This document shows positions 1,366 through 3,541 of a DNA stretch of 64,000 nucleotides, one piece after another (within the stretch, counting starts at the first letter, position 1; each line of letters opens with the position of its first letter). The position numbers and the translations under genes were made by a program. The notes beneath the pieces were generated by a model. It searched no databases. It was given only the letters and a program-made list of their open reading frames with translations, and had not been told where the DNA came from. The stretch lies in NCBI RefSeq assembly GCF_057098645.1, contig NZ_CM169472.1; one strand, given 5' to 3'.

Positions 1366-1539
1366 TCAGGCGGCGATTTTAGCATGATCCGCAGATGCTA
1401 ACGTAATTGTCAGTCAGGGAGGGGCTGGTACATATATGGCAAAAGCCCGGAAAATCCGGGCTTCGCAGGTCCCTCAAGGGGAGAAAACTTAGGGCCTCTA
1501 TGGGCTACAAAGTCATTATCGGGGATGGTGATTTTATTG

Positions 1540-2043
1540 TCAATTTATGAGCGATATGGCATTGATTGACTTGATGACCGCCCTCTGTATGTCTGCAACC
1601 AACTCATGTGGCAAACATTGATTAAGATACCCTCTGTAAGTTCTTGCTCTGTTTAATCTGTTTCGACTGACTTGTTGTACCAGGTCGGCTTTGGCCCAAC
1701 GAATCTGCTGATCAAAGAATTGCAGGTCATTGATAATATTACTGGCTATTTCAACATGCATTCCACGATTTAACTTGTCATGGTCGCGAGTGGTTGATAA
1801 TGGAACGACGATACATGCGTTGCCATTAATTTTTCCGTTGAGCACGACAACTAACCTGTTTTTTATCATTTCAGGAGGAATGCGGCCATCGTAATACGTG
1901 GTGCTGAACGGTCCATTTTGGCTAACAGGATAGTTACCAAAGTTGCATTCCAGTATTTCACCAACCTTAGGGCTGAAATTAATCGCCACGAGTAAACCTC
2001 TCCTTAGTAAACTCTGAAAAAGTAATAACACAACGTTACGACC
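1540..2043 (-). pseudogene. yifN: orphan PemK/MazF-family toxin-like ORF (yifN-like); 5' region abutted by IS2, no antitoxin partner visible; an intact reading frame from GTG at 2031 is possible
   Basis: translation contains MazF/PemK-like motifs (GEILECNFG..., PPEMIKNRLVVVLNG, ACIVVPLSTT); the ORF-track N-terminus (2044-2178) lies inside IS2 and is fortuitous. Confidence 0.5.
2039..2043. repeat. IS2 target-site duplication, left copy (CGACC)
   Basis: identical 5-mer directly flanks both IS2 termini (2039-2043 and 3375-3379). Confidence 0.8.
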
Positions 2044-2134
2044 TAGACTGGCCCCCTGAATCTCCAGACAACCAGTATCACTTAAATAAGTGATAGTCTT
2101 AATACTAGTTTTTAGACTAGTCATTGGAGAACAG

Positions 2135-2500
2135 ATGATTGATGTCTTAGGGCCGGAGAAACGCAGACGGCGTACCACACAGGAAAAGATCGCAATTGTT
2201 CAGCAGAGCTTTGAACCGGGGATGACGGTCTCCCTCGTTGCCCGGCAACATGGTGTAGCAGCCAGCCAGTTATTTCTCTGGCGTAAGCAATACCAGGAAG
2301 GAAGTCTTACTGCTGTGGCCGCCGGAGAACAGGTTGTTCCTGCCTCTGAACTTGCTGCCGCCATGAAGCAGATTAAAGAACTCCAGCGCCTGCTCGGCAA
2401 GAAAACGATGGAAAATGAACTCCTCAAAGAAGCCGTTGAATATGGACGGGCAAAAAAGTGGATAGCGCACGCGCCCTTATTGCCCGGGGATGGGGAGTAA
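2135..2500 (+). CDS. insC: IS2 OrfA (InsC), helix-turn-helix regulator/transposase N-terminal part
   Basis: 121-aa product [56 protein letters not shown]... Confidence 0.93.
2452..2458 (+). promoter_or_regulatory. programmed -1 ribosomal frameshift heptamer AAAAAAG joining insC to insD
   Basis: A6G motif sits in the orfA/orfB overlap, as in IS3-family elements. Confidence 0.7.
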
Positions 2501-3363
2501 GCTTAGTCAGCCGTTGTCTCCGGGTGTCGCGTGCGCAGTTGCACGTCATTCTCAGACGAACCGATGACTGGATGGATGGCCGCCGCAGTCGTCACACTGA
2601 TGATACGGATGTGCTTCTCCGTATACACCATGTTATCGGAGAGCTGCCCACGTATGGTTATCGTCGGGTATGGGCGCTGCTTCGCAGACAGGCAGAACTT
2701 GATGGTATGCCTGCGATCAATGCCAAACGTGTTTACCGGATCATGCGCCAGAATGCGCTGTTGCTTGAGCGAAAACCTGCTGTACCGCCATCGAAACGGG
2801 CACATACAGGCAGAGTGGCCGTGAAAGAAAGCAATCAGCGATGGTGCTCTGACGGGTTCGAGTTCTGCTGTGATAACGGAGAGAGACTGCGTGTCACGTT
2901 CGCGCTGGACTGCTGTGATCGTGAGGCACTGCACTGGGCGGTGACTACCGGCGGCTTCAACAGTGAAACAGTACAGGACGTCATGCTGGGAGCGGTGGAA
3001 CGCCGCTTCGGCAACGATCTTCCGTCGTCTCCAGTGGAGTGGCTGACGGATAATGGTTCATGCTACCGGGCTAATGAAACACGCCAGTTCGCCCGGATGT
3101 TGGGACTTGAACCGAAGAACACGGCGGTGCGGAGTCCGGAGAGTAACGGAATAGCAGAGAGCTTCGTGAAAACGATAAAGCGTGACTACATCAGTATCAT
3201 GCCCAAACCAGACGGGTTAACGGCAGCAAAGAACCTTGCAGAGGCGTTCGAGCATTATAACGAATGGCATCCGCATAGTGCGCTGGGTTATCGCTCGCCA
3301 CGGGAATATCTGCGGCAGCGGGCTTGTAATGGGTTAAGTGATAACAGATGTCTGGAAATATAG
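2458..3363 (+). CDS. insD: IS2 OrfB (InsD), DDE transposase catalytic part; normally expressed as an InsCD fusion
   Basis: 301-aa ORF with integrase-core (DDE) motifs, in the -1 frame relative to insC. Confidence 0.93.
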
Positions 3364-3374
3364 GGGCAAATCCA

Positions 3375-3379
3375 CGACC
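3375..3379. repeat. IS2 target-site duplication, right copy (CGACC)
   Basis: matches 2039-2043. Confidence 0.8.
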
Positions 3380-3541
3380 CGATATTTTCTAAGTCTAATG
3401 GATTCACGATGAACTCCGATTTCGGTCTTCTCTCTCTGATTTAAACATCCGCAGCCAACCGGTTAGCGGCTTACACGCGGTCACATTCAAATGCGATTCT
3501 GCTACAATCCTCCCCCCGTTCGAAGATTGAGCAATACACCT

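Follow-up and report, generated by a model that had tools for sequence, protein, structure and literature searches.

Toxins of the MazF/PemK/Kid family (PF02452) are the textbook examples of type II toxin-antitoxin systems, defined by an adjacent, co-transcribed gene coding for a protein antitoxin. In type III systems, such as ToxIN, CptIN and TenpIN, the antitoxin is an RNA, encoded by a tandem-repeat array located upstream of the gene for a ToxN or AbiQ toxin; a terminator lies between the two, and the toxin processes the RNA. The fold of ToxN is Kid/MazF-like, and inhibition of such a fold by RNA thus has a precedent. Type I systems combine an antisense RNA with a small hydrophobic toxin. 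MicL and DapZ are sRNAs of another kind, lineage-specific regulators whose promoters lie within the 3' end of the coding sequence that precedes them. The YifN subfamily is annotated everywhere as 'type II toxin', and is treated in E. coli as an orphan or a pseudogene; the comparisons reported here indicate that this widespread subfamily travels instead with a conserved, unnamed sRNA gene.

The locus was analyzed within a window of 64,000 nucleotides, which comes from an E. coli O145:H28-type chromosome. The site was reconstructed as it would be without IS2 and without one copy of the target duplication, and proved identical, in one piece and at 875 of 875 nucleotides, to that of the IS-free E. 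coli O145 strain RM9872. The next 19.6 kb on the right match O145:H28 genomes at 100% identity; IS2 occupies this place in 23 genomes, and these O145:H28 ones are not among them, in keeping with a recent insertion. The features identified are collected in Table 1.

Table 1. Features of the yifN-rep region; positions are those of the window.
Feature	Position	Strand	Basis or remark
AT-rich islet containing yifN (about 785 bp when IS2 is left out)	1387-3507		comparison with the islet-free locus L006
Conserved structured sRNA gene, about 71 nt, three hairpins, the last a terminator-like stem	1438-1508	-	covariance model, alignments, covariation
sRNA promoter TTGACA-17-GATAAT, 11/12 consensus match	1515-1543	-	promoter scan
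yifN, intact, 149-aa protein of predicted PemK/MazF fold, stop codon included	1540-1989	-	start GTG 1989; Pfam, RefSeq, model
Shine-Dalgarno AAGGAGAGG, 7 nt upstream of GTG 1989	1997-2005	-	read directly from the sequence
In-frame upstream GTG, start proposed in the first-pass annotation	2029-2031	-	at most an alternative or minor upstream initiation site
Target duplication CGACC, 5 bp, left copy	2039-2043		read from the sequence; empty-site comparison
Complete IS2, 1331 bp	2044-3374	+	length, ends, both ORFs, domain matches
Target duplication CGACC, 5 bp, right copy	3375-3379		read from the sequence; empty-site comparison
Native yifN-rep intergenic DNA, cut off from yifN by IS2	3380-3541		presumed home of the yifN promoter and upstream elements (inferred)
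rep promoter candidate GTCACA-17-TACAAT, intact	3480-3508	+	promoter scan; 106 bp beyond IRR

The IS2 copy is structurally complete. Its terminal inverted repeats are imperfect (IRL at about 2044-2085, IRR at about 3334-3374), in line with the lengths of 42 and 41 bp reported for the element (PMC3299598), and its ends, TAGACTGG...AAATCCA, are those expected. Both reading frames are open: orfA (2135-2500) contains a HTH_Tnp_1 domain (E 2e-19) and orfB (2458-3363) the DDE/rve integrase core (rve, E 1e-18); the two overlap in the -1 frame, and the slippery site for the frameshift, AAAAAAG, occupies 2451-2457. Annotated IS2 copies differ from it at 2 to 8 of the 1331 positions. The transposase genes are antiparallel to yifN, toward which IRL is turned. 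The first-pass annotation had described a complete element, flanked on both sides by a CGACC duplication and brought in by simple transposition rather than by rearrangement; all of this is confirmed, the last point by the clean duplication and by the exact empty site in RM9872. IS2 thus arrived by standard transposition, with its 5-bp duplication, into the divergent yifN-rep spacer.

The start codon of yifN has to be moved with respect to the initial proposal, which had placed it at GTG 2031 and IS2 about 12 bp upstream of it. The identical IS-free allele of RM9872 is annotated by RefSeq as the 149-aa protein WP_000996686.1, starting at the GTG equivalent to 1989, which is preceded by a strong Shine-Dalgarno sequence. 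The N-terminus encoded from this codon, M-[A/P]-I-N-F-S-P-K-V-G, is conserved among 38 family members, while the extension starting from GTG 2031 is not conserved in the family. Because the start codon is GTG 1989, IS2 lies 54 nt, and not 12, upstream of the gene. The in-frame stop, earlier noted four codons upstream of the junction, is present in the empty site, and the placement of IS2 within the 5' control region, outside the coding sequence, holds. A Ribo-RET study reported that yifN has a further initiation site upstream, for which no coordinates were given and which may be GTG 2031. The reading frame is intact both here and in the IS-free sibling strains, where it is not truncated.

The MazF/PemK-like motifs initially recognized by eye correspond to a significant match of YifN with Pfam PF02452 (E 9.4e-11; score 42.3 bits, cutoff 23.1). 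An AlphaFold2 model (pLDDT 79.8) predicts the MazF/Kid SH3-like barrel fold with a C-terminal helix; when used for a structure search, it retrieved 47 PDB matches at E<=0.001, all of them MazF-family toxins, with target-normalised TM-scores between 0.62 and 0.80. Residues R45 and S65, invariant in 38 YifN-family sequences, align with R29 and T52 of E. coli MazF in a low-confidence hhalign match, which agrees with an alignment made by eye. YifN is therefore predicted to be a MazF-fold protein, retaining the catalytic Arg and Ser/Thr positions. A literature search for experimental data on RNase activity or growth inhibition by YifN returned none. No match to a known defence or named family was found by PADLOC, NCBIfam and PDB sequence searches. 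A helicase adjoins the gene of a 72%-identical YifN homologue, as rep does in E. coli, which suggested a functional link to UvrD/Rep-like helicases. The link was judged a coincidence, because other YifN contexts contain no helicase and because this second helicase is a STM2767-family protein, located in an island which also carries a PADLOC candidate defence gene.

A protein antitoxin was searched for on both sides of the gene. In the empty site no ORF longer than 11 aa is found upstream of yifN, and downstream only an implausible 32-aa ORF is present. Eight distant loci were then compared for every ORF of 18 aa or more lying up to 600 nt from either side of yifN, and no conserved ORF was found beside yifN in any of these contexts; the only matches corresponded to the margins of yifN itself or to DNA-level homology between close relatives, and a missed small antitoxin was discarded as an explanation. 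No adjacent, co-transcribed protein antitoxin gene of the type II kind is thus found at yifN. The absence of an antitoxin-sized ORF, noted in the first-pass annotation for this locus, extends to the eight distant ones. The 'orphan' label given there stands as far as a protein partner is concerned, and falls short in that a conserved RNA gene, directly downstream, had been overlooked.

This gene encodes a small structured RNA, 5'-GUAGCCCAUAGAGGCCCUAAGUUUUCUCCCCUUGAGGGACCUGCGAAGCCCGGAUUUUCCGGGCUUUUGCC, transcribed from the same strand as yifN by a predicted promoter of its own, whose -35 hexamer overlaps the TGA stop codon of yifN (1542-1540). In nearly all of 38 aligned copies, both promoter elements (-35 and -10) lie at a constant distance from the 5' end of the RNA. 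The covariance model detects it with 86 bits (E 7e-18), as the sole match in the 64-kb window. In the alignment, 97.4% of the cells are paired, 13 of 18 pairs feature compensatory changes and none of 500 shuffles is as good, values which flatter the structure, the alignment being fitted to the model; the z-score of the single-sequence fold is -2.8. An alternative long hairpin, suggested by the single-sequence MFE fold, was discarded on inspection by eye, with no formal count, as unsupported in Pseudomonas sequences. The 4227 covariance models of Rfam 15 gave no match at E<=1 between positions 1000 and 3700, apart from a viral hairpin, matched by chance at another place in this interval. In K-12, RNA-seq and northern blotting had revealed a sRNA 'downstream of yifN on the same strand' (Romero et al. 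2014, PMC4681348); a link between this RNA and the YifN family was not found in the literature searched.

The association between the two genes was evaluated in both directions. Starting from the protein, the RNA is present in all of 38 full-length YifN-family loci, in 35 of them at the canonical position, 35-100 nt downstream of the yifN-family gene on the same strand; starting from the RNA, yifN is found upstream in 25 of 25 matches. A single copy is present per locus, the only exception being L063, with two. The linkage spans Gamma- and Betaproteobacteria, and the cassette is found on chromosomes, genomic islands and conjugative plasmids, including pCAR1 and E. coli IncF and IncX1 plasmids. 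Nucleotide identity is 66-97% in the sRNA versus 56-78% in the adjacent coding sequence. A scan of viral contigs for the RNA gave two pattern matches, one of which is the metagenome contig of locus L165, failing the covariance model, which locus L088 also failed; a search for YifN among phage proteins was empty. In E. coli the sRNA region is intact in all 4015 genomes carrying it, and yifN is frameshifted or IS-disrupted in many. No IS2 insertion falls within the 136-bp sRNA region, where about 1.8 would be expected, a difference not significant alone. By these sequence comparisons yifN is not a decayed orphan, but belongs to a family without a protein partner, yet strictly tied to a conserved sRNA gene.

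The two genes lie within an AT-rich islet, with a GC content of 41-42% versus 50-58% in the flanks, which is carried by 4017 of 5426 genomes and absent from about 26% of E. coli, in which just 120 bp separate ppiC from rep. Seven independent IS2 insertions were identified between positions 1595 and 2043, i.e. within 450 bp, all in the same orientation, five of them in yifN and two only one base apart. Each is marked by a distinct duplication (GCAAC, GATAC, GTTTA, CTAAC, GCTGA, ACGAC and CGACC), and the copies differ from each other at up to 59 of 1331 positions. The genomes occupied by IS2 are about 22, against about 1.6 expected from the genome-wide density, by our own arithmetic, which is confounded by clonality and by the tolerance of dispensable DNA for insertions. 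The K-12 pseudogene yifN' carries a 1-bp deletion at nucleotide 210, and K-12 lines already carrying a frameshifted yifN were hit in this gene by IS2 as well, one case being a de novo insertion in an evolution experiment (PMC4340650). Inactivation is therefore not needed to explain the targeting, which points to a target preference; IS2 target choice has been described as regional and linked to curvature (PMC3299598). For IS2 the islet is a regional hot target, and the papers searched do not describe it as one. It resembles the hot region of phage P1 and hemB in offering many insertion points within a short stretch of AT-rich or curved DNA; a distinctive trait is that all seven insertions strictly share a single orientation. 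The insertion in the window is in itself routine, and adds a data point for a sharply defined natural hot target with orientation bias, useful for studying target choice by IS3-family elements.

The consequences of the insertion for expression depend on the promoters at hand. No consensus yifN promoter was found by promoter scan, even in the empty site. In the IS-bearing sequence, the scan predicted no promoter-like site facing yifN, none crossing the IRL-flank junction on the minus strand and none crossing the IRR-flank junction on the plus strand; hybrid outward promoters were also sought by hand at the IS2 ends and discarded, as TGGAGA on the IRL side and TGGAAA on the IRR side have no usable -10. 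Hybrid promoters are formed by IS2 at chromosomal insertion sites too. The outward -35 hexamer in IRR can build them, an example being the minicircle junction promoter Pjunc (PMC3299598), and could activate or rewire yifN or rep; this is nevertheless highly improbable here, since yifN is faced by IRL and not by IRR, both junctions are devoid of predicted promoter-like sites and the rep promoter candidate is left unchanged. Silencing of yifN, which the first-pass annotation had suggested, is plausible but unproven. A stronger version, in which an orphan toxin has no antitoxin and IS2 was selected in its 5' region for silencing a harmful gene, could invoke the position of IS2 between yifN and its upstream region, the lack of a protein antitoxin and the repeated loss of yifN in E. 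coli by K-12-type frameshift, by the five in-gene IS2 insertions and by absence of the islet. Selection of this kind is quite unlikely, given that IS2 also hit the gene when already frameshifted, that the shared orientation and the two insertions one base apart fit a target preference, that the intact 149-aa allele is widespread, its protein cluster comprising 1975 member sequences, and that yifN has an RNA partner gene. Reasonably likely, on the whole, is a combined explanation, in which a near-neutral IS2 hit in a hot target uncoupled yifN from its upstream region, and the sRNA is the functional partner of YifN. The insertion would be recent and essentially neutral, driven by a preference for AT-rich, dispensable DNA and not selected for silencing. 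By separating yifN from its native upstream promoter region it would probably reduce transcription, a guess made because neither the 54 nt still attached to yifN nor the IRL end shows a promoter-like site. The rep promoter would be unaffected, as would the sRNA gene at a distance of 480 bp. With the sRNA kept while toxin expression is lowered, the insertion would be harmless.

As to what the sRNA does for YifN, it would most likely be an abundant RNA antitoxin or a pseudo-substrate binding the predicted RNase, with a mode of action like that of a type III system and a different architecture. The corresponding proposal, that YifN and the sRNA make up an unrecognised class of toxin-antitoxin systems, in which a dedicated structured sRNA, single-copy and transcribed independently, takes the place of a protein in neutralising an RNase of the MazF/PemK family, is put forward tentatively, at somewhat less than even chances. 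The RNA might instead travel with yifN as a trans-acting regulator, a substrate or product of YifN, a cofactor in a ribonucleoprotein, or a stabilising 3' end or terminator, YifN itself being perhaps a non-toxic, specialised RNase. The single downstream copy, unlike type III arrays, would fit such roles, and so would the translation of yifN in normal growth (Ribo-RET), the lack of a YifN model in PADLOC or NCBIfam and the conservation and expression of the sRNA in K-12 despite a dead yifN. Antitoxins, however, are commonly kept after toxin decay; moreover, the linkage is strict both ways across Gamma- and Betaproteobacteria and plasmids, the RNA owns a strong, conserved promoter, its primary sequence is conserved above that of the coding sequence, and a plain terminator would not keep two extra hairpins and single-stranded stretches. 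A role other than that of antitoxin is on this evidence rather unlikely, though a good deal less so than a type I-like one, in which the sRNA would act as an antisense antitoxin pairing with the ribosome-binding region of yifN. Read by eye, the C/U-rich stretch UCUCCCCUU of the sRNA could pair imperfectly with the Shine-Dalgarno sequence, but RNAduplex pairing of the sRNA body with its own yifN from -60 to +30, computed in 33 loci, did not surpass that of shuffled sRNA (mean z -0.23), and YifN is a 149-aa soluble protein of predicted RNase fold, not a small membrane peptide; antisense pairing is very unlikely, and the pair of an antisense RNA with a small hydrophobic toxin that marks type I is not found here.

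If the proposed toxin-antitoxin pair is real, the K-12 sRNA seen by northern blot would be the surviving antitoxin of a dead toxin, and many annotated 'solitary PemK/MazF toxins' would not be orphans. An antitoxin role of the RNA would also bridge type II and type III systems, and a sRNA of E. coli, now without function, would gain one.

Compared with the systems described so far, YifN shares with the MazF/PemK/Kid type II toxins the Pfam match, the predicted fold, a P..G motif at the N-terminus and residues equivalent to the catalytic Arg and Thr/Ser, and differs in being about 40 residues longer, through loop insertions; its family has no MazE/PemI-type antitoxin gene and is coupled to a sRNA gene instead. 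The locus in the window is the same as that of K-12 yifN' and of the sRNA of Romero et al. 2014, here with an intact allele plus IS2. As with MicL and DapZ, the promoter of the sRNA reaches into the end of the coding sequence before it, and sRNA and mRNA have their terminator in common; unlike these lineage-specific RNAs, the YifN sRNA co-migrates with the gene preceding it, in two classes of Proteobacteria and also onto plasmids. The cassette resembles type III systems in the strict tie between a gene for a protein of endoribonuclease fold and a small structured ncRNA, and in its mobility on plasmids. It departs from them in that the toxin-like protein belongs to PF02452 and that the RNA, in place of an upstream tandem-repeat array with an intervening terminator, is encoded by a single downstream copy with its own promoter.

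The IS2 element of the window is complete, has imperfect terminal inverted repeats and contains two reading frames, with the domains HTH_Tnp_1 and rve/rve_3; compared with copies that other genomes list as 'IS3-like element IS2', it has only 2-8 differences in 1331 positions. The empty site, rebuilt by removing IS2 and one copy of the CGACC duplication, matches E. coli O145 RM9872 as a single piece at 875/875 positions, fully confirming the first-pass annotation, which had proposed a complete IS2 inserted by simple transposition. In addition, the next 19.6 kb to the right is 100% identical to O145:H28 genomes, none of which is among the 23 genomes carrying IS2 at the yifN locus. Because of the exact empty site and of these IS2-free matches, the insertion is regarded as recent and strain-specific.

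Features of the yifN region and positions of independent IS2 insertions (window coordinates)
Feature	Position	Strand	Remarks
ilvC, 3' part	start of window
ppiC	1060-1341	minus
sRNA gene	1438-1508	minus	about 71 nt
Terminator-like hairpin			~70 nt downstream, beyond the sRNA promoter
sRNA promoter	1543-1515	minus	TTGACA-17-GATAAT, near-consensus; -35 hexamer overlaps the yifN TGA stop codon
yifN ORF	ends at 1540	minus	between ppiC and the insertion sequence
Shine-Dalgarno AAGGAGAGG			7 nt upstream of GTG 1989
CGACC duplication	2039-2043 and 3375-3379		flanks IS2 on either side
IS2	2044-3374		1331 bp; ends TAGACTGG...AAATCCA
AAAAAAG slippery site	2451-2457		overlap of the two IS2 reading frames
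rep promoter candidate	3480-3508		GTCACA-17-TACAAT, 106 bp past the right terminal repeat (IRR), unchanged
rep	ATG 3542		beyond the insertion sequence, followed by gppA
IS2 insertion, strain N51	1595-99		duplication GCAAC
IS2 insertion, ten ETEC-type genomes	~1626-30		duplication GATAC
IS2 insertion, seven W3110-P laboratory lines	1651-55		duplication GTTTA
IS2 insertion, EPSSH018	~1851-55		duplication CTAAC
IS2 insertion, MB06101	1972-76		duplication GCTGA
IS2 insertion, Z226-5/6	2038-42		duplication ACGAC

The protein read from 1989 to 1543 matches PF02452 (PemK_toxin) with E 9.4e-11 (42.3 bits, cutoff 23.1), in agreement with the initial description of the ORF as MazF/PemK-like. An AlphaFold2 model, obtained with 38 homologues as input (mean pLDDT 79.8), gave 47 PDB matches at E<=0.001, all to toxins of the MazF family (TM-score 0.80 at most). 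Residues R45 and S65, invariant across the family, align with MazF R29 and T52 in a weak profile match, with which a by-eye alignment agrees. The native start had been placed at GTG 2031; the evidence favours GTG 1989 instead, on the basis of the Shine-Dalgarno sequence, of the RefSeq entry for the identical IS-free allele (WP_000996686.1, 149 aa), which starts at the equivalent codon, and of the N-terminus M-[A/P]-I-N-F-S-P-K-V-G, kept in 38/38 aligned relatives from Enterobacterales to Betaproteobacteria. IS2 therefore lies 54 nt, and not about 12, upstream of the start codon. In retapamulin ribosome profiling, yifN was reported to initiate both at the annotated start and at an upstream one, for which GTG 2031 is the sole canonical in-frame candidate.

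The yifN locus was found in 4017 of 5426 complete E. coli genomes, the others showing no match to it. In the one genome without yifN that was inspected (L006), the whole islet of about 785 bp is missing and the gap between ppiC and rep is 120 bp; the GC content of the islet is 41-42%, against 50-58% in the flanks. In strains without yifN, an unrelated 41-bp spacer (L006 2538-2578) takes the place of the islet (window 1387-3507). Since the latter holds the rep promoter candidate and the ppiC upstream region, the promoter-proximal DNA of both genes depends on whether a strain has yifN. Alleles of the K-12 type lack 1 bp at nucleotide 210 and bear a frameshift annotation; the window allele is the intact one, and the ORF is not truncated alike in IS-free strains.

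IS2 was present inside the query region in 23 genomes. Junction mapping assigned one insertion to ilvC and six others to positions within or just before yifN, each separate and each with a clean 5-bp duplication. The former, found in the laboratory strain OV2, is an IS2 that matches the K-12 copy exactly and splits ilvC (L007 1501-2831) about 0.8 kb from yifN. The insertion of Z226-5/6 is 1 base off the CGACC of the window and involves an IS2 variant with 29 differing positions; up to 59 positions differ among the copies at the islet. Including the window, seven independent events fall within 450 bp (1595-2043). According to a crude density estimate (~23,700 IS2-like places in 5,290 genomes of ~5 Mb), about 1.6 occupied genomes are expected for a 450-bp segment that 4017 genomes possess, versus 22 observed, an excess inflated by clonality and by tolerance of dispensable DNA. 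Its direction is that of the documented IS2 target choice, which is regional and associated with curvature (PMC3299598). New transposition of IS2 into yifN' was also reported in a K-12 evolution experiment (PMC4340650). Both there and in the W3110-P lines the starting allele was a frameshifted pseudogene, so that selection for toxin inactivation cannot explain these insertions. All seven islet insertions have the transposase antiparallel to yifN, on the rep/ilvC strand, with the left terminal repeat (IRL) towards ppiC; the chance of the six others sharing the window orientation at random is about 1/64, and the uniformity could derive from target asymmetry, replication direction or selection. 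It is concluded that the window insertion, ordinary in itself, reflects a hot target for IS2.

The end facing yifN is IRL, within which the IS2 promoter points inward (PMC3299598). On the yifN strand, consensus scans detected nothing promoter-like in the 54 nt that remain or across the junction, and the empty site likewise had none ahead of yifN; the native promoter would therefore be weak or non-canonical. The most likely effect of IS2 would be reduced yifN transcription through loss of contact with the upstream region. An adaptive reading of the silencing first suggested is possible, though not needed as an explanation.

The toxin had also been defined an orphan, which holds for a protein antitoxin: the upstream spacer of the empty site can code for at most 11 codons, and no conserved ORF is shared beside yifN homologues from Serratia, Photorhabdus, Roseateles, Pseudomonas, a Klebsiella-like genome and a metagenomic island. 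The term does not hold for RNA, as a conserved sRNA gene adjoins yifN. The resulting yifN-sRNA cassette was the unexpected result of the analysis. An sRNA 'downstream of yifN on the same strand' had been detected by northern blot in an E. coli transcription-map paper (PMC4681348).

When the downstream regions from seven distant homologues were aligned, an element of about 71 nt stood out by its striking conservation, and a covariance model was built on it. The model detected the sRNA in 38/38 genome loci whose YifN relative is full-length and shares at least 39% identity (two weak detections appeared only with filters off). In 35 of these it has the canonical placement, following yifN at 35-100 nt in the same orientation; in three the arrangement differs. 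None was detected beside 12 more distant PemK relatives or beside N-terminal yifN gene fragments. Conversely, when metagenomes were scanned with a sequence pattern for the RNA, 25 model-confirmed matches were obtained, with yifN or its pseudogene directly upstream in 25/25. The predicted structure consists of three hairpins, in which 97.4% of cells pair and 13/18 pairs show compensatory changes; 0/500 shuffles were as good and slid controls collapsed, in an alignment which, being fitted to the model, favours structure. Identity to the E. coli copy is 66-97% for the sRNA versus 56-78% for the adjacent coding sequence, the distance from the -35/-10 elements to the 5' G of the RNA is fixed in nearly all loci, and Rfam 15 gave no match at E<=1. 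The 136-nt segment of sRNA and promoter is retained, at a coverage of at least 80%, in 4015/4015 E. coli genomes possessing it, whereas the neighbouring yifN is often frameshifted or IS-disrupted.

Some variants were observed among the loci. Five Pseudomonas loci (L071, L080, L082, L083, L085) retain only residues 1 to 25-65 of YifN, have no sRNA and look like decayed or truncated cassettes. Strain MB06101, with IS2 in yifN codons 5-6, also carries an IS481-family element (L008), inserted precisely where the stop codon of yifN and the -35 hexamer of the sRNA lie (window 1543-1548), the sole lesion seen next to the sRNA promoter, coinciding with a disrupted toxin gene. An inverted repeat, TTGACr-N2-4-yGTCAA, covers the -35 hexamer and spacer in many loci (L011, L024, L030, L031, L040, L053, L054), the E. 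coli version being weak. It may serve as an operator or form a hairpin at the 3' end of the yifN mRNA. In a K-12 line grown for 1000 generations in simulated microgravity, a C->T change was reported at MG1655 3,957,957, which is 78 nt past yifN and 121 nt ahead of ppiC (PMC5460176); this corresponds to window ~1461-1462, inside the sRNA terminator stem. The sRNA lies upstream of yifN on the opposite strand in Massilia (L060, 636-714) and, as two tandem copies about 800 nt away, in Herbaspirillum (L063, 482-560 and 639-719); in Shewanella (L051, 724-799) it follows yifN directly, inverted.

Where yifN is plasmid-borne, on pCAR1 and on IncF/IncX1 plasmids of E. coli, the sRNA accompanies it too. 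The plasmid pW1316-2 (L200, IncFIA/FIC/X1), the one examined, encodes, within a few kb of repA, a 157-aa paralogue (56% identity with chromosomal YifN) that has its own sRNA copy; the paralogue occurs on 60 other plasmids at >=99% identity and is common on E. coli plasmids. These contexts are consistent with a role in plasmid maintenance. A 72%-identical homologue (L023-L025) lies with its sRNA in an integrase-bearing island, where its neighbours are a helicase of the STM2767 family (NCBIfam E 1e-272) and a candidate defence protein, PDC-S32/AbiJ_NTD4 (PADLOC E 1e-32). A search of phage proteins found no YifN.

Strict two-way linkage, an independent strong promoter and plasmid mobility fit a toxin-antitoxin-like cassette with a putative RNA antitoxin. 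The sRNA could also be a cofactor, a substrate or an unrelated regulator. Antisense control is unlikely, as duplexes between the sRNA and the 5' region of its own yifN are no better than those of shuffled sRNA (mean z -0.23). In the favoured model, that of an RNA antitoxin, the IS2 insertion would lower toxin expression and leave the sRNA intact, and would thus be harmless.

Having no protein antitoxin, the cassette does not belong to type II systems; architecture and toxin family likewise separate it from type III. ToxN toxins of type III systems have a Kid/MazF-like fold, and their inhibition by an RNA which binds the protein provides a precedent for a putative inhibition of YifN by the sRNA. 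Unlike the type III RNA, the yifN sRNA is single copy, located downstream and transcribed from its own promoter. The cassette may work like a type III system, rather than being a member of that class.
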